A DNA stretch of 64,000 bases from sequence record MH494197.1; one strand, 5' to 3'. The notes beneath the pieces are model-generated. The model was given only the letters and a program-made list of their open reading frames with translations. It made no database searches and was not told where the DNA came from. This DNA is from Escherichia phage CMSTMSU. Shown here one piece after another: positions 2,326 through 64,000 of the stretch (position 1 is its first letter; each line of letters starts with the position of its first letter). Both the position numbers and the translations under genes were made by a program.

Positions 2326-3812
2326 TGGCATATAGAATGTGGAAAAAGGTAGAACCAATGATTACAAGTTCATTGACTCTGCCATAGCAGAACAATACAA
2401 CATCGGTGGTGTTGACATGTGGCTTTATGCCTATGTCGGACCAAAACAAGTCGCTGATAACACTGATTTATCATATGGCGGTGATTATTATGGATCAGAT
2501 AGTACCGTTGTGTCAAGCATTGGTGATTTAATTTTGGTGACACTCCAAGTCGTAACTATAATCTCGAAGCTATCACCTTAAGTTGCGTCTACCAAGTCCA
2601 AGAAGCAACTCCTGACTTGAAAATCCCGATTGTTCTTCAACTTTAACACTATGGACATCACAATTCATTATAACACAATGATTCAGCGTTTGGGAAGAAA
2701 AATTATGCCGTGACGTAATCGAACTTCCTAACTTACGTGATTTTGATGTACTTGGTAAAGATTCTGGTTTAAACCGCTTCTATGTAGTACAAGATGGGTT
2801 TAGAACGTCAGAAGGTTACTCAGTTACATGGCAACATCACATTTACAAACTCCGTGTTAAACCTCTTACTGATTCACCAGAGTACTCTGACCTTCTAGGT
2901 AACAATAACTACCCTGATGACCCAGATGATCCAAACAACGGCAATGGTAATACTGATGATGGCTCTTCAGAGAACAGCAGCTATGGTAATGAAATGGATA
3001 TTATGAACCGTATCATTATGCAAGCTGATGATGAAGTACCATACATTCATTTTACTAACGAACACTTGTTCGATGACAGACCAGATACTGTTGATTTGTC
3101 TAAGTATATGCTAAATGGATACGAATTACCAGAGGAACCAGCAAATAAAATGTATTTCCTCAAGAAAACTTACCCAGTACTGAAAGAACTATCTAATGAT
3201 ACATGGATTTCTGTAGAAGTCAAGCGTGGAACAATCTTTCCTCGCAAACCGATGGATGGTGACTTCTTCTTTAAAGAAAACGAGGCTGATGTCACTGGCT
3301 TCTCATTGTATCAATACGATAAATCTGCCAAAAGTGGCTAAATTGTGATGTTGAGTATACTACAGAAAGCACACCACCACAAGGGGTTGATGATTTTTAT
3401 ATTGAATACAAAGAACCACACATTTATCAGTACTTAAATGGTAAATGGGGAGAACCAGAAGTAACTTACGTTAATGACCCATTCACTTCTAATAGTGTTT
3501 ATGGAAATATCGATTCACAACAAGATTATCGTCCTAAGATTCCTCCAGCACGAGGTACAGTTCCTGAAGGTAACATGTTCCCAAGTGATGCAGTTGATGG
3601 TGATTACTACTATCGTACCGATTATACACCAGTAACCCTATGGGAATACAGTGCGTCCAAGAATTCTTGGGTGATTTTCGATTACGGTGGTAGAAAACCG
3701 TGGAAGGTGCAGATCTTGCTCTAACAGAATTTGTTAATAGCCCGAACCGTGTGCCATTACATGATGCAGTTAAACCTAATACAGTGTATCGTATACATAA
3801 GGATTCAGAATG
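2326..3812 (+). CDS. hypothetical virion (baseplate/tail?) protein, about 495 aa, frame broken
   Basis: Same-strand ORF pieces (2339-2581, 2994-3341 and unlisted frames between) read as one protein with an Asp/Pro/Gly-rich linker; stop overlaps the next start as ATGA at 3810. Function not recognised. Confidence 0.4.
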
Positions 3813-5132
3813 AAAATAGATTATTATTATGATGGTCAATTTCGTCGAGTACTGAAACATCTTATCAGAGTGTTTGGTGAATTTCAAGTACAAAATGGTG
3901 TTGATGCTGACGGAAAACCAAAATATAAGAAAGTTCCTTGCCGCTATGCAGATATTTCACGTATGGCAGCAGCAATTATTAATGGTAACAGTGAGAACGT
4001 GCTTCCAACAGCACCAATCATGACCATTAGTGTAAACCAACTTAAACTAGATCGCAAGTCAGTTCGTTCAAACGCAAATGAAACATTGGTTATGGGGACT
4101 AACAAGTCCCGAATTAACGAATATACTAAAGACTTAGATAAACAGTATAAAGTAACTCGTCATAACCCAGTACCTTGGACATTTACTTTTGATGTTAATA
4201 TTTGGGTTACACAAACACAAACCAAAATGGAACTATTTGAGCAAATTTCAACATTGTTTGCTCCTAGTATTCAATTACAACTCTCCGAGAACCCATTGGA
4301 TTGGACATCATTGAGTGATGTGGAGTTAATTGACTGTCAATTTACTACTCGTGGTTTCCCACAAGGAACCGATAGTGATTTGGATATAATGATTTTGACA
4401 TTTGAAACAACAATTTGGTTCTCTTTGCCAGCTATTGTTGAGAAACCAAAACTTATTCAACAAATTACCACCAATATTAAAGGTGCTCGTGATGAACTTG
4501 ATTTTGAAATTGGTAATTACTCGGATATCATTACTGATGTATTCACACCAAAGAACTTATGTATTAAAGTTGATGAAATAACAAACTCTGAACTTAATAT
4601 TCCAGATACTTACCAACTCACTCTTGTTAGTCAATCACTATCAGAAACATCACCAAATGGTGGAATTTATTCATGGGAAAAATACCTTAAGTACTTGGAC
4701 CCAGAATATGAAGACAAGACGGTTGGTATCAAATTCCAACAAGCTATAGAAGAGGACAACCCACTAAAAGGACACATCTCTTCATTTGGTGAAGGTGCTG
4801 AATCTAACAAGATTGTAGTTCAGCTTGATAATAGTAATTATACTGTTGATTATACAATACATGGATTCATTAGTAAAAGCTCTTTGTTATATAACGCACT
4901 GCCTGAACAATATTATGTAAATAATAGCATACATAACATCATTTACAAAGAGACTGAAATCCCAGCGAACTATTTGTTTAAAATTACCAATGATGGAGCA
5001 GAACTTATTGAGCCATCACTAGTACACAACTATGTTTATAATATGGAAGATAGTGGATATTATAGATATAATGACAAATTCAAATGGCATAAGAGTATTA
5101 TGTCAGTATATCGTCAGGGTATTGGAAAATAA
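3810..5132 (+). CDS. hypothetical protein, 440 aa, probably structural
   Basis: Intact 440-aa ORF translationally coupled to the upstream gene inside the structural block; no motif recognised. Confidence 0.55.
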   Translation: MKIDYYYDGQFRRVLKHLIRVFGEFQVQNGVDADGKPKYKKVPCRYADISRMAAAIINGNSENVLPTAPIMTISVNQLKLDRKSVRSNANETLVMGTNKSRINEYTKDLDKQYKVTRHNPVPWTFTFDVNIWVTQTQTKMELFEQISTLFAPSIQLQLSENPLDWTSLSDVELIDCQFTTRGFPQGTDSDLDIMILTFETTIWFSLPAIVEKPKLIQQITTNIKGARDELDFEIGNYSDIITDVFTPKNLCIKVDEITNSELNIPDTYQLTLVSQSLSETSPNGGIYSWEKYLKYLDPEYEDKTVGIKFQQAIEEDNPLKGHISSFGEGAESNKIVVQLDNSNYTVDYTIHGFISKSSLLYNALPEQYYVNNSIHNIIYKETEIPANYLFKITNDGAELIEPSLVHNYVYNMEDSGYYRYNDKFKWHKSIMSVYRQGIGK

Positions 5133-5161
5133 CTTTCACTGACAAATAAGGAGGTGTTGTT

Positions 5162-5623
5162 ATGAATGAAGCAGTAGGTGCTATATTTTTATCTAAAAGT
5201 ACTGGACATATGATGTTAAACTTGAGATCAGAAAGAAGTACGTATTCTAACAACTGGGCATTTGTTGGTGGGAAGCTTGAGTATAATGAAACTCCGTTAC
5301 AGGGTCTTATGCGTGAGATTAAAGAAGAGCTAGGTGATTCTATTCCAACGATAATAGATATTATACCATTTGATGTATTCTGTACGAAGAATGGTAAATT
5401 TAAATATTATTCATTTGTCATTGTAGTTGAAAATGAATTCGTACCTACTTTAAATCATGAGAGTTCGGGTTATGCATGGGTTAAGATTGGCTCATGGCCC
5501 AAACCATTACATCCGTGCAAAAACACATTACTTAACACAAATTTAATGAAGGATTTCTATTCATTGTGGGAAAGTATACGACAAGGTACACAGTTTGTCA
5601 ACAGCTTACCATATCGATATTAA
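5162..5623 (+). CDS. NUDIX hydrolase
   Basis: Nudix box GGKLEYNETPLQGLMREIKEELG (GX5EX7REUXEEXGU); RBS AAGGAGG 8 nt upstream. Confidence 0.75.
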   Translation: MNEAVGAIFLSKSTGHMMLNLRSERSTYSNNWAFVGGKLEYNETPLQGLMREIKEELGDSIPTIIDIIPFDVFCTKNGKFKYYSFVIVVENEFVPTLNHESSGYAWVKIGSWPKPLHPCKNTLLNTNLMKDFYSLWESIRQGTQFVNSLPYRY

Positions 5624-5625
5624 TA

Positions 5626-5655
5626 AAAAGGAGCCAATGGCTCCTTTTTCTTTAT
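5626..5655. terminator. bidirectional intrinsic terminator hairpin between convergent genes
   Basis: aaaaaGGAGCCaatGGCTCCtttttc: GC stem flanked by A-run and T-run. Confidence 0.5.
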
Positions 5656-6327
5656 ACCCCAATTAGTGGGATACCTGTTATGTTAAGTAGAACAGATGCT
5701 TGAAGCTTAACTGACTCACCTGCCGAAAGGTTGTTTACTATACCATCGACGCGGAACCCTAAGTTTTTATTAGAGTTGAGAGAGTTAATCACCCAGTTTT
5801 CGTAATCCGCTTTTGTAATACCATTCGGATTTGGGAGAGTTGGATCAACATCATTAATTACCATAGAAACATCCCAATTCGGGCGACTACTTGTAATTAC
5901 ATCCTTGATTGATTCTAGTTGTGTAATGCGACGTGGATCTGGAATCTGACTTGCACCAATTGAACCGAAAAATGTACCTTGGTTATCAACATAGAACTGA
6001 CCTTTAATGAAAAATGTTTTGAATTATACGGAAGAGAAACAATTTCACCTGATGAATCACTAACTTCACGAATCATAATTTTCAATTCATAAAAATAGTT
6101 ACTACCAAATTCAAACACACCAGTACCATTTGTGAATGTTGTCCAGTTATTTGAATCAACCTGTGAAGTACCACCCATATTGAAGTACGCTAATGGCTTA
6201 GTACTGTTACTTTGTGTAAATTCAATATATTTCTTACCTGTATCATAGTTGATATCAAGTAGTGTTGAGTACTCTTTATTTTCTGGACGAGATGTTTGAA
6301 TTTCACGCCATTCTTTATTTTTCATTA
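5652..6327 (-). CDS. hypothetical tail/fibre-associated protein (two ORF pieces)
   Basis: ORFs 5915-6325 and 5652-5864 in the same orientation; start ATG overlaps the upstream stop (TAATG). Confidence 0.35.
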
Positions 6328-6746
6328 GGACACGAAGGAATCACCATTACTGGTAAGAACCATACGACCCATAATACTATTTTCACCATCTGGTACTGTG
6401 TTGAAAATTGAAATCATTGGGATAGATGCCCAGTCAGCTTCAGATGCAGTATCTACTGGCTGACGAGCATTATCAACTAATGCAAGAAGTAGTTCGCCAG
6501 TGTTGCCAGTATTTCTGTACCAAATCTGACCATTAACGTTACCACGAGGTGCAGTAGCTCCACTGAAGTTCTCAACCAAGTGGAGGAAGTTTTCGTTCCA
6601 TGCTTGACCGTAACCAACTTTATTTCGACCTGCAAAGTTTAACGGTACTGGGTTACTACCGTTGGTTTGGTCCTAATATTACGTTATTTGGAATGGTAGC
6701 ATAAACGCTACCATTACTTCTATAAATTGTATAACTTACACTCATA
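6325..6746 (-). CDS. hypothetical fibre-like structural protein, about 140 aa, frame broken near N-terminus
   Basis: ATG at 6746 then MSVSYTIYRSNGSVYATIP..., continuing after a frameshift into ORF 6325-6579 (NVNGQIWYRNTGNTGELLLAL). Confidence 0.35.
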
Positions 6747-6951
6747 TCATCACCTTATTATTGTAGTTGGACACGAACTGTGTATTTGATTTGCAAAACA
6801 CGGTTAGCACTTTTCTCAACTGGGTGAAAAATAATATGGGTAAGTGGAATACCGCTATCACCATTTGTATATAAACCCAATTCGTCAAATACATATGTCC
6901 CATCCATGCTAGTACCAGAGCTAACACCTTGGTCAGATGGCTCACCTAAAC

Positions 6952-7364
6952 CTAATGTGCAAATACAGACGATATCAGTGTAAGCTTGGCACGGAATGTG
7001 AACAGTTGTAATGTTGTTATATTGTGAATCAATACCAGCAGAGATACGTGGGTTGATTTTTTCAGATAAGTCTGAGAATATAGACCACCGAAAGAAGTAA
7101 CGCGTGGTTTCTTGTATGTGATACGACCAGTACTCAAAACTACTGTTCCACCATTACCAAAACGCATCTCACTAATAGATCCAATAGGAATACCAGTACT
7201 ATCTTGATTATAAGCCAACGCATTAGCAATAGCAGTACTCATATTTTCAGGGTGAATTGCGTTTGATTTATCCAAAACGATTTTTGGTTAGATGGATCAG
7301 TAACGTCAGTAATTAGTACATGACCCTTAACAAATAGTTTTGGTTGTTCTGTTTCTAATTTCAT
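6952..7364 (-). CDS. hypothetical structural protein (fragmented; 3' end uncertain)
   Basis: ORF 6952-7275 plus an upstream in-phase segment starting at ATG 7364 (MKLETEQPKLFVKGHV...). Confidence 0.3.
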
Positions 7365-61123: not shown

Positions 61124-61492
61124 TTGAATTTATTCCTCGCTGCAAGGGAATTCTGTTTAAGTTCATTCAGAAGTTTAACGCCATCTTCATCTAGACATAC
61201 GTTTTTGTAAACTTCTCTTTCTACTATAATAGGCACTTGTGTCTCGATAACTTTAGCATTATCTTGCATTATCTTTTTGGTTTCTATATAGTTTTTGCAT
61301 TTTCTTGCTGCATCTTAGCGAGTGCAGAATCAACTTTCTTTTCTATTTTTGGTCAATACTTTCTTTATAACCAGTATAATAAGTATTTGCTGACCATCCA
61401 CCGTAAACACAACCTGCCATTACTCCTACTACCAAAATTGGTTTCCAATATGGTATTAAAACTTTTGAAACAATAATTTCTAGTACACTCAT
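61121..61492 (-). CDS. type II membrane protein with N-terminal TM and charged helical domain (i-spanin-like candidate; frame-broken)
   Basis: MSVLEIIVSKVLIPYWKPILVVGVMAGCVYGGW then Lys/Glu/Gln-rich segment; RBS AGGAGA. Confidence 0.4.
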
Positions 61493-61717
61493 AATAACAT
61501 CTCCTATAGTTGGTAATATTATTTAGAGTGTACTATATTATATGTTTACAACATTTTTGAATATGATCTACGAGTTTATACAGTTTAGTGTTTTCATTCT
61601 CGTATTCCAAATCAACTTCAACTTTGAATTCTTCTTCAAGTTCCATGATCATTTCAATCCAGTCAAGCCAATCGAATTTAAATTTTTCCACGACTTCACA
61701 TTTAGTAAGATGGAAGT

Positions 61718-63159
61718 TCATTGATACATCTTTTTCGGATGCATTTTGTCGCGACTTGTAATGAATTTGACAATTGCTTTTTCAACGTCAGTTAGTTCAC
61801 GTGTGCGATATTCTGGTTCAAGATACCATTCGCCATTATTGATAGCTTCCAACGAAAGTCTAAGTTCATGCATTAGTTTATAACGATCAGTACTTTTATG
61901 GATGCGGTTAACTTCGCGATTCAGTACACGTAGTGCGTCTTTGATTTGTTCGTTTAGCATAACAATCCTCTTATTTTTTCTGTACCATTGCATTTCACGG
62001 ATATCTAATAGTACCTTCGTAGCCAACTTTATGTTTGGTCGCTTCGGTAGATGGGTCTTATGATACGCCACATTTCGGATGTAGCCTTTTCGTTGAAATA
62101 ATCCATAACTTCTTGATACAACCACTTCCCGTTACGAATGTCCATCAACATAGCAGCATCCGGTCGGTGAACTTGGATGATGCCAGTTTCAAGTGCTTCC
62201 TGTGCTGTATTCAGCAGCCTGATTATGCATAGCATGTTTGCAGTCATAACCGTGGTGTGATTCAAGAATAGCACGTTTGGCATTACGATTCTGCTTCCAT
62301 TTGTGATAACTCTTACGGTTCTCACTATTTTCTTTGTATTCCTTTTCATTGAATTTTACAATGAGTTCAGGACGAACTTTCAATTCTTCTGTAGTACGTT
62401 CTTTGTTGAAGTAACGTAGTGAACCATCAGCATTCACTGTACTTTCATTCGGGTTGATAATTACCCCAAAGATGTTTTCACCGTAATGGATTAGTTCATA
62501 TCCAGAATTGTAATTCAATAAATTGAAATCACGATCTAATACTTTATCAGTACTATAATTATGTACTAAACGTACAAAATGATATTGTTTCAATGCTTGT
62601 GTTGAAACTTAATAAGTATCACGCATGTATTTTTCAAAATCAATTTTTGTAGCATTGAATGGGTGAAGATTGGATTTATTCAAACGTCAGAATATCATTC
62701 GTCAACTGGATGTTCTTCTAAAATTTCATTTAGTTTACGTTCAGCAATTCGTTCCTTATCGAGCCAGCCGTGGTGATTAGACATACGCTTAACCTGATTG
62801 TATGCATATCCACTGTATGAGTGTGCAATCTTTGAACTCAATAATTGCTGATTGAATGAGCGTAGATAGTCATAGATTTCAGTACTTTCTACGATGTGTT
62901 CCGGTTTAACCCATAGTGATTCAAGAATGTTTGGGTTAGCTTCAGTATGAACTTAAGTACTGATTGATTTCATAAAATTTAGTATCTTCTTCAGAAGTAT
63001 CTGAAACTTCCTTAACATTAAAAAAGGAGTTAGGATATATTCTTTGTTTGCAAGGAAGATACCACGATAATCTGTATCACTTTCTGGTGTGCTTGTGCCA
63101 TACGCCTGTGAACCAGCTAAGTGTTTCACAATAGTTTGTTCTAGAAAATTGTTTTTCAT
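61718..63159 (-). CDS. nucleotidyltransferase-fold (Pol-beta-like) protein, about 480 aa (heavily frame-broken)
   Basis: N-terminal LAGSQAYGTSTPESDTDYRGIF fits the G[GS]x9-13 D-h-[DE] motif; ORFs 62953-63159, 62189-62593, 62029-62349, 61718-62125 on the same strand. Confidence 0.35.
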
Positions 63160-63586
63160 AAGTAAATCGTTAACTCCTTTAGAAAACCATTATAGTATCG
63201 TTTAAAATCATGATCCAGTACTTGATAGTCATTGTAACTAAATCCAAGATTGATGATGGTATCTTCTTGGAAGAATTTCTCTTCATTCATTACTTCGATG
63301 GGTTCGTATTCTTTCCCACCTTTATATACTTTGTAAAGAACATACCATCATTGTTAATTTCAACGTACATGAAATTATTTTCTGGATCTCGTGGACACAC
63401 AATGTTTAGTGAACTTGTCCCATTGTTATTATATTCGTATGAAATAATATCAAAAGAATCGATACCATAACATTTGGACTTTTCTTTGTCACCAAGACTT
63501 TTCTATCTGTACTCATATTGCGTATAGTACTGTAGATATCATCGATTGTAGTCATAATTAACCACCGTACTTTGACTTATATGTTT

Positions 63587-63979
63587 CTAAAGATAAAGAA
63601 ATGCGATTTTGCTTTTAATTCTTTCATCAATATCCTTTGAATTCTTAACACTTCTGTATACATCAGCTAATAAATTATAATCTTCTTTATTTGAGCTATG
63701 TAATGCCCAACCTATATCTGTTTTGATTCGAACATATGCTTTATTTGATGTGAAATAAAAATTGAATCCGTTAGACCCATCAAAAATATCATAAGTATTT
63801 ACCCAATCTCCATAAGGAAAACTCATTGGTACTGACTCATAATCAATGGTGATATCCGATAAATTTTTAGAACAGTACTTTACAAAGTGGTAAACAATCG
63901 GATCACATTTTGATAATTCGTATTTGTATTCAATGATAGTTTTTCTATTAGTATCATTGATGGCATATTCTTTTATCAA
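63587..63979 (-). CDS. hypothetical protein, 130 aa
   Basis: ORF only. Confidence 0.35.
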   Translation of the reverse strand: MIKEYAINDTNRKTIIEYKYELSKCDPIVYHFVKYCSKNLSDITIDYESVPMSFPYGDWVNTYDIFDGSNGFNFYFTSNKAYVRIKTDIGWALHSSNKEDYNLLADVYRSVKNSKDIDERIKSKIAFLYL

Positions 63980-64000
63980 TGGACTTTTTGATGATAAGAG

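Follow-up and report, generated by a model that had tools for sequence, protein, structure and literature searches.

A gene broken by sequencing deletions in an Asteriusvirus-type jumbo phage encodes an RlaP-family nucleotidyltransferase with a likely role in tRNA-end repair

The minus strand of the window (the whole stretch of 64,000 nucleotides analysed here) encodes, near its end, a Pol-beta nucleotidyltransferase (NTase) of the RlaP family. The gene looks oversized and broken because sequencing deletions fill the window. The explanation that best accounts for the locus as a whole, and that we hold to be probable, is that of an RlaP gene of 412 aa with artefactual frameshifts and a product that would act in the repair of tRNA ends. 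Two parts of it are almost certain: the identity of the gene as RlaP, and the origin of its frameshifts as homopolymer-type deletion errors left across the window by an unpolished assembly. Neither the family nor the gene is new: several public Asteriusvirus genomes already contain an intact copy, labelled an RlaP-superfamily nucleotidyltransferase, and the protein probably functions in repairing RNA (tRNA) ends.

The interval 61718-63159 had been described in an earlier note as coding for one large protein of ~480 codons. As given, this DNA is divided among five ORF pieces in three different frames and contains no single ORF, and the one-protein reading was rejected on the evidence of intact relatives, which show two genes over the same DNA. 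The first, an intact CDS of 1239 nt in the relatives, is annotated in WPEC5 as 'nucleotidyltransferase' with the note 'RlaP superfamily'. The second starts 10 nt past it, has 417 nt, and is annotated in relatives as 'acyl carrier protein' or 'D-alanyl carrier protein'; it has weak NCBIfam ACP matches, and its PHROGs assignments are phrog_18343 and phrog_5934 (we call it ACP-like). In the window, it is frameshifted at about 61748 and 61559, and its 5' part (61718-61960, the first ~80 codons) makes up the last ~250 nt of the interval. The NTase seems fused to it because a 1-nt deletion at 61980 throws the NTase stop out of frame, and the figure of ~480 codons ending at 61718 arose because the frame runs on into the ACP-like gene. 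Hence, the true product has 412 aa, and the excess belongs to its neighbour. On the other side, the stop of a 133-aa gene overlaps the NTase start, which suggests co-transcription and translational coupling. The genes of the locus are the following:

63156-63555, minus strand: upstream gene of 133 aa, function unassigned (phrog_22376), stop overlapping the NTase start (ATGA)
61971-63159, minus strand: RlaP-family nucleotidyltransferase gene (alignment to WPEC5 and fEgEco12, PF10127, phrog_388)
61546-61960, minus strand: separate ACP-like gene of 138 aa (CDS of the relatives and tblastn mapping)

In a megablast search, positions 61400-63400 are 96-99% identical to eight Escherichia jumbo phages, among them WPEC5, EC.P1, Ecwhy_1, fEgEco12, and vB_Ec-M-J, the last of which is classified in Asteriusvirus. 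The window is Asteriusvirus-type E. coli jumbo phage DNA, 98-99% identical to WPEC5 and fEgEco12. The base-by-base alignment of the NTase gene with that of WPEC5 reveals seven deletion events in the window, all seen relative to two independent close relatives (WPEC5 and fEgEco12):

About 63026, minus strand: deletion of 1 nt
About 62950, minus strand: deletion of 2 nt
About 62690, minus strand: deletion of 34 nt
About 62614, minus strand: deletion of 6 nt
About 62225, minus strand: deletion of 2 nt
About 62085, minus strand: deletion of 4 nt
About 61980, minus strand: deletion of 1 nt

Over the 24 kb between 40000 and 64000, the comparison with fEgEco12 (99.0% identical) gives 121 indel events (88 of 1 nt and 23 of 2 nt), every one a deletion in the window and none an insertion. 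Homopolymer runs of at least five bases hold 59% of the 1-nt deletions, against 2.7% of the positions. The same events recur in the comparison with WPEC5. At least one frameshifting deletion is present in 39 of the 48 annotated CDS of this part of the window, including the tail sheath gene. The seven indels could also be taken at face value, as belonging to a true pseudogene of the phage. We find this scarcely credible: the deletion-only, homopolymer-biased pattern affects those 39 genes, with essential genes such as that for the tail sheath among them; a phage with such defects could not be viable; and all of the close relatives, at least 30, retain the intact ORF. The near-identical public proteins (more than 30) are all intact at 412 aa. 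A protein identical to the intact copy of WPEC5 is present on 25 public contigs, and the window encodes fragments only. We therefore used as corrected protein one identical to the WPEC5 product (P0001). Any frameshifted, fused, or oversized ORF in this window should be compared with polished relatives before it is interpreted.

The Pol-beta NTase motif that had been noticed at the N-terminus is real. The N-terminal motif region, MKNNFLEQTIVKHLAGSQAYGTSTPESDTDYRGIF, is encoded on the minus strand from 63159 downward, and the signature itself, GSQAYGTSTPESDTDYRG, comprises G16-S17, D28-x-D30, and R32-G33. The corrected protein matches the Pfam RlaP profile (PF10127) at an E-value of 3.8e-17, with 63.3 bits for a cutoff of 23. 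A 68-aa fragment of the window matches it on its own (E-value 6.8e-5, 23.1 bits), as does a second fragment (E-value 7.9e-4). Because the window fragments and the corrected protein each match this profile, the N-terminal motif is no chance match. The match spans residues 14-131 only (positions 25-144 of the 249-position profile) and leaves positions 145-249 unmatched. Similarity to characterised and compact RlaPs ends at about residue 135, a point against the mechanism proposed below, and the C-terminal two-thirds could therefore give a different acceptor specificity. In PHROGs, residues 3-411 match phrog_388, 'nucleotidyltransferase', over the full length (E-value 2.7e-75). All but one of the 120 homologues listed carry PF10127, the exception being a 287-aa partial match (P0088). 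The NTase has no match in NCBIfam or PADLOC, against which both flanking genes were scanned as well, and searching PDB sequences with either the single protein or a 52-sequence profile returned nothing meaningful. The NTase matches neither PF01743 (the PolyA_pol head) nor PF12627; another gene of the region carries both. Describing the substrate as unknown and some 400 residues as unrecognised was an overstatement: the protein is a PF10127 member whose close relatives are already annotated as RlaP, phrog_388 covers it end to end, and its C-terminal part folds in a HEPN-like manner.

We aligned 52 sequences to identify invariant residues. In the N-terminal part these are G16, S17, Y20, G21, T22, S27, D28, D30, R32, G33, D59, E64, N76-P-N78, E81, G118-Y-A, Q123, R126, and H130; in the C-terminal part they are W302, N305-R-N307, R310, E314, D320, K322, H326, R329, R347, D349, R357, and G359. 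They include every element of the Pol-beta signature (hG[GS], DxD, and a third conserved Asp), represented by G16, S17, D28, D30, and D59, which lie on the expected strand-helix-strand elements of the structural model. The paired acidic residues are thus present after frame correction, as the earlier note expected, together with a third invariant Asp, D59, which by the canonical layout of Pol-beta NTases is the probable third catalytic carboxylate. The AlphaFold2 (AF2) model, built on the same alignment, has a mean pLDDT of 91.6 and a pTM of 0.81. It consists of an NTase core of alpha/beta type (residues 1-110), a long helix (112-150), a helical insertion (about 150-205), a beta-rich subdomain (206-285), and a six-helix C-terminal domain (286-412). 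The corresponding features in the window are:

63061-63114, minus strand: NTase signature (direct read, invariant in 52 sequences)
62969-62986, minus strand: D59-E64 (DTKFYE), in a stretch frameshifted in the window; D59 and E64 are invariant, at the start of AF2 strand 60-64
62773-62937, minus strand: helix with NPN...E81 and long helix with G118-Y-A-x2-Q-x2-R-x3-H130 (alignment and AF2)
62588-62760, minus strand: helical insertion of ~70 residues (135-205), a gap in homologues of 340-365 aa and helical in AF2
62348-62587, minus strand: beta-rich subdomain, residues 206-285 (AF2 strands 210-215, 235-241, 244-249, 280-284)
61974-62347, minus strand: C-terminal HEPN-like helical domain, residues 286-412, with the invariant set W302...R357

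With the long helix carrying G118-H130, similarity to the Pfam RlaP profile and to the T4-type NrdC.11 comes to an end. The helical insertion is specific to the Asteriusvirus/Rak2-like branch, and the 34-nt and 6-nt deletions fall within it. The beta-rich subdomain is found throughout the phage clade and is absent from compact RlaPs; the profile stretch 197-407 matches clade members. As modelled, the architecture is that of a Pol-beta NTase followed by a HEPN/KNTase_C-like helical domain. We considered a HEPN RNase at the C-terminus and rejected it, the conserved Rx4-6H motif being absent from the 52-sequence alignment. Because this motif is missing, the domain is probably not a nuclease but a substrate-binding wall, like KNTase_C. 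The isolated C-terminal 121 residues have no Pfam match even at E ≤ 10. Foldseek searches of the PDB gave weak, generic NTase matches only, which include MNT-HEPN complexes, ANT(4'), LinB, and AadA, with CdnE and TUTase structures at E-values of 0.85-2.5 and TM below 0.12. The structural matches in BFVD are phage and giant-virus 'nucleotidyltransferases'.

By the Pfam criterion the protein is a member of PF10127, and its sequence places it in a large, phage-dominated clade with C-terminal two-thirds of its own. A word-indexed search identified 574 homologues, and 1,565 phage records carry a homologue; the profile search of 1.84 billion representative proteins yielded 10,418 clusters at E ≤ 1e-3, 1,844 of them at E ≤ 1e-30. 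In every clade member tested, the match takes in the N-terminal half of the Pfam RlaP profile and no more. Homologues of ~700 aa were rejected as informative domain fusions, their extra length being due to intein insertions. The intein interrupts the invariant GYD|[TC]KHAMH after D320 and before C/T321, with Cys at its start, GN at its end, and T or C at +1, and in one member (P0123) it has a LAGLIDADG match. Genuine additions exist elsewhere in the clade: several members (P0148, P0168, P0197) have an RNase T-type DEDD 3'-5' exonuclease fused at their C-terminus, and one protein (P0262) contains a canonical RlaP and a clade NTase in tandem. Taken as sequence evidence, the inteins, the RNase T fusions, and the tandem protein point to an important C-terminal module and to a function at RNA ends.

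The genomic context had been brought into the earlier interpretation through nearby CCA enzyme, macro, NUDIX, and 2H genes. The CCA and NUDIX assignments are solid; those of macro (20.2 bits for a cutoff of 22) and 2H (2H-SAK, 23.5 for 27) stay below the Pfam thresholds. These genes lie 10-17 kb and dozens of genes away and hence form no operon with the NTase; the CCA-adding enzyme (PolyA_pol and RNA-binding domain) is at about 14 kb. Beyond the upstream 133-aa gene are three tandem paralogues (phrog_18641, phrog_7868), and downstream of the ACP-like gene are spanin and HNH genes. No repair gene is found within 10 kb on either side of the NTase in WPEC5 or in a 59%-identical relative. The Asteriusvirus gene adjoins no repair gene, and its immediate neighbours are functionally unassigned, a second point against the mechanism given below. 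Elsewhere, WPEC5 encodes a Pfam-confirmed T4-type Pnkp (kinase and HAD_PNKP) and an Rnl1 (RNA_lig_T4_1 and T4_Rnl1_C) that is 35% identical to T4 RnlA. Both are at 309-312 kb, about 36-38 kb from the NTase; RNA ligase is absent from the annotation of the 0-200 kb region. Rnl1 requires 3'-OH and 5'-P ends, a requirement compatible with the RlaP product.

Linkage is tighter in other members of the clade. In the Vequintavirinae BIS47 and Av-05, a same-strand cluster runs from the CCA enzyme through a PTH2-like hydrolase and DUF7205 to the NTase, and Av-05 encodes a member of the RNA ligase family at another site in its genome. The DUF7205 gene and the upstream 133-aa gene of the window, which occupy equivalent positions, show no homology. 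We surveyed the neighbourhoods of 80 IMG/VR clade loci, many of them short, by BLAST-level detection with no background control, so that the counts are supportive, not quantitative: a same-strand repair gene (CCA enzyme, Rnl1, or Pnkp) lies within 0.1-8 kb in 11 of the 80. The CCA enzyme is 0.1-2.1 kb away on the same strand in six loci. In four of these six a PTH2-like gene occurs at most ~3 kb upstream of the NTase, and in three it stands between the CCA enzyme and the NTase; the loci with the CCA, PTH2-like, and NTase cassette are L061, L071, L082, and L090. Pnkp is found 4-8 kb away in two of the six CCA-enzyme loci, and Rnl1 2.5-4.4 kb away in five of the 80 loci.

In jumbo phages, RlaP has been described as the commonest repair NTase (Iyer et al. 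2021, PMC7824862). According to the same work, it is distributed in parallel with RNA ligases and is predicted to put back, ahead of ligation, the nucleotides that cleaved RNA ends have lost (PMC7824862). The enzymes of P. fluorescens and P. aeruginosa (PfRlaP and PaRlaP) add one or two NMPs or dNMPs onto RNA 3'-OH ends and leave DNA and protein unlabelled, rely on Mn2+ as their preferred metal, act preferentially on the 5' half when given a cleaved-tRNA mimic, and improve the aminoacylation of a repaired tRNA that had been missing one nucleotide (PMC12776372, December 2025 preprint). In the PfRlaP crystal structure, the N-terminal NTase and a C-terminal helical domain form a cleft, and three Asp are strictly conserved; the same study lists T4 NrdC.11 as a phage RlaP (PMC12776372).

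For the phage protein, we infer the substrate, the number of nucleotides added, and the biological role from the family. [quoted passage not shown] The N-terminal core would bind an NTP and a divalent metal (Mn2+ is the preferred metal of characterised RlaPs), with G16-S17 and D28/D30/D59 as the expected catalytic residues. The cleft between this core and the HEPN-like domain, with its invariant WxxNRNxxR...E...GYD[C/T]KHAMHxxR, would hold the RNA 3'-OH end while one or two untemplated nucleotides are added. In the infected cell, such additions would replace nucleotides that damaged tRNA ends have lost to trimming, whether at breaks in the anticodon loop, at acceptor 3' ends, or at both; the repair could then be completed by the T4-type Pnkp and Rnl1 of the phage together with its CCA-adding enzyme, and host tRNA-targeting defences would be countered.

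The clade-specific C-terminal module may change the acceptor specificity, and this is where the proposed mechanism is least certain. It is conceivable, if on the unlikely side, that the phrog_388-type clade, with at least 1,844 representative clusters at E ≤ 1e-30, is a functionally distinct subfamily of the same RlaP family in which this module (beta subdomain and HEPN-like domain) alters the acceptor. The CCA-enzyme, PTH2-like, and NTase cassette may then rebuild tRNA acceptor 3' ends, e.g., discriminator or 3'-terminal nucleotides after exonuclease or toxin damage, in place of filling anticodon-loop gaps. The tight same-strand cassettes of the Vequintavirinae and of four IMG/VR loci would fit such a role, as would the fusions to RNase T-type exonuclease, a family active in trimming the 3' ends of tRNA. 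A C-terminal module of its own also sets the clade apart, and the tandem of a canonical RlaP with a clade NTase suggests non-redundant activities. Yet other clade members lie close to Rnl1 (the five loci above), and RNA ligases occur in both phage lineages examined, so that a ligase-coupled role fits equally well. If true, a distinct subfamily would amount to a second, ligation-independent route of tRNA repair in phages.

The remaining readings are poorly supported, as is that of a pseudogene. The earlier note had offered RNA repair or nucleotide-signal interference; the former is the likely role, given family and linkage, and the latter fares badly. It would have the NTase act in counter-defence by making free oligonucleotides or cyclic nucleotides, or by otherwise disturbing host nucleotide signals, as a decoy for instance, with a HalB-like oligodeoxyadenylate keeping a Hailong-type effector silenced. 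We regard this as very improbable. The likeness to HalB is confined to the generic NTase core, PADLOC has no match, CD-NTases and OAS-like enzymes come far down the structural ranking (Foldseek E-values above 0.8), the sequence places the protein in RlaP and outside the signalling NTase families, and gene linkage favours tRNA enzymes. It is just as improbable that the NTase acts on a protein or a small molecule, by MNT-like AMPylation of host HEPN RNase toxins or ANT/Lnu-like modification, despite the structural matches to MNT-HEPN, ANT(4'), LinB, and AadA and the HEPN-like C-terminal domain.

We return to tRNA-end repair by an RlaP enzyme. The addition of one or two nucleotides onto RNA 3'-OH ends by this family was already reported in 2025, and the residual interest of the gene lies in a large phage clade with a conserved C-terminal module. 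Because its members are linked to genes for the CCA-adding enzyme, a PTH2-like protein, Rnl1, and Pnkp, the clade is a candidate well suited to studying how phages mend tRNAs that host defences have damaged.

The protein can be compared with several named systems. The CD-NTases and OAS are distant (no PADLOC match, Foldseek E-values of 0.85-2.5). Hailong HalB (PDB 9dbh), an NTase that synthesises oligodeoxyadenylate, is 14% identical with no sequence-level relationship; it has 217 aa and works with the HalA effector in bacterial defence, and neither close structural and sequence similarity nor such a partner or context is found in the phage. ANT(4'), LinB, and the MNT-HEPN modules resemble the phage protein in that a HEPN/KNTase_C-like helical bundle either follows the NTase domain or pairs with it. 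Class II CCA-adding enzymes (PF01743, PF12627) share the Pol-beta superfamily and template-independent addition to RNA 3' ends, but the phage NTase lacks the PF01743 match, and a separate, bona fide CCA enzyme is encoded about 14 kb away.

With the RlaP family, the protein shares a score above the PF10127 gathering threshold, the hG[GS]...DxD signature with its third Asp, and the order of an N-terminal NTase and a C-terminal helical domain, and the phage genome also encodes an RNA ligase and Pnkp. It differs in that its C-terminal domain misses Pfam positions 145-249 and that its gene is outside an RtcB-RtcA operon, with the ligase about 37 kb off. The T4-type NrdC.11 of JSE (232 aa) is a phage RlaP, matching the Pfam model over positions 24-198, and is encoded with Rnl1 and Pnkp in the same genome. 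By hhalign, its homology to the phage protein extends over residues 9-135 (probability 97%, E-value 5e-11), but identity is about 27%, over the N-terminal part only, and it has neither the beta subdomain nor the WxxNRN...GYD[TC]KHAMH module. The Vequintavirinae NTases (BIS47_147, Av05_0062) lack the ~70-residue insertion (135-205) and sit in a tight cluster with the CCA enzyme, PTH2-like, and DUF7205 genes, from which the Asteriusvirus copy is dispersed. They and the phrog_388 members are homologous to it along the full length: they are about 35% identical over 97-99% of the protein and have the same domain order and the same invariant residues.

Over the 24 kb at positions 40000-64000, the window differs from close relatives by 121 deletions, biased towards homopolymers, and by no insertion; 39 of the 48 coding sequences in this region are frameshifted. 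The deletion-only pattern probably extends over the whole window, and odd open reading frames anywhere in it should be treated as possible assembly artefacts. Two BFVD/UniProt proteins, A0A2Z5HFQ2 with 432 aa and A0A2Z5HJ75 with 134 aa, match parts of the NTase at 99-100% identity, which suggests that this gene is also split or frameshifted in a second deposited phage genome.

The features around the NTase, elsewhere in the window and in the close relative WPEC5 are the following.

Window ~63560-64000 (in-window part; locus L001, 4242-5842): three paralogous genes in tandem, 170-190 aa each (phrog_18641, phrog_7868)
Window ~62242-62244: equivalent of the intein site of NTase homologues, D320/C321
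Window ~61546-61960 (L001, 7492-7908), (-): 138-aa gene after the NTase, with a C-terminal ACP-like domain
Window ~45.5-48.4 kb and ~52 kb (locus L003, 4854-8503 and 12023-12433): loosely clustered genes related to tRNA and nucleotides
PV654397.1 (WPEC5) 26.6-45 kb, outside the window: ~14 tandem paralogues of ~1.1 kb each

The three tandem paralogues adjoin the 133-aa gene and the NTase on the upstream side. In the WPEC5 array, the annotation calls several genes chromosome condensation regulator (RCC1/ATS1 superfamily) and the others hypothetical. On the downstream side, the 138-aa protein has an N-terminal extension of ~70 residues besides its ACP-like domain, which weakly matches TIGR00517 and phrog_5934. 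Because its phosphopantetheine-attachment motif reads DWLD in place of DSLD, the protein is predicted to be probably unable to act as a carrier protein. The loose cluster includes a NUDIX protein, a class II CCA-adding enzyme, a macro-like protein (match below threshold) and a 2H-SAK-like protein (weak match); a Pfam search with its annotated aminoacyl-tRNA hydrolase returned no match.

Six NTase homologues (P0121, P0123, P0124, P0130, P0132, P0145), and probably also P0138, carry an intein of ~330-410 aa in the C-terminal domain, always at the same site within the invariant motif GYD/[TC]KHAMH (slash, insertion point). Each intein begins with Cys and ends with GN, and the +1 residue is T or C; P0123 has a LAGLIDADG match. 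In P0148, P0168 and P0197, and probably in P0165 and P0203, the clade NTase carries a DEDD 3'-5' exonuclease of the RNase T type as a natural C-terminal fusion. Unlike these, P0262 has two NTases in a row: first a full-length RlaP of the canonical type, then a copy of the clade NTase.

In other phages, an RlaP-clade NTase recurs in a same-strand cassette, in the order CCA-adding enzyme, PTH2-like hydrolase, NTase:

L011 (BIS47) 2703-7074: cassette, genes on the same strand
L012 (Av-05) 2931-7047: cassette, genes on the same strand
IMG/VR loci L061, L071, L082 and L090: cassette, genes on the same strand

Pnkp is also present within 4-8 kb in L082 and L090, and the Vequintavirinae version of the cassette has DUF7205 between the PTH2-like hydrolase and the NTase.
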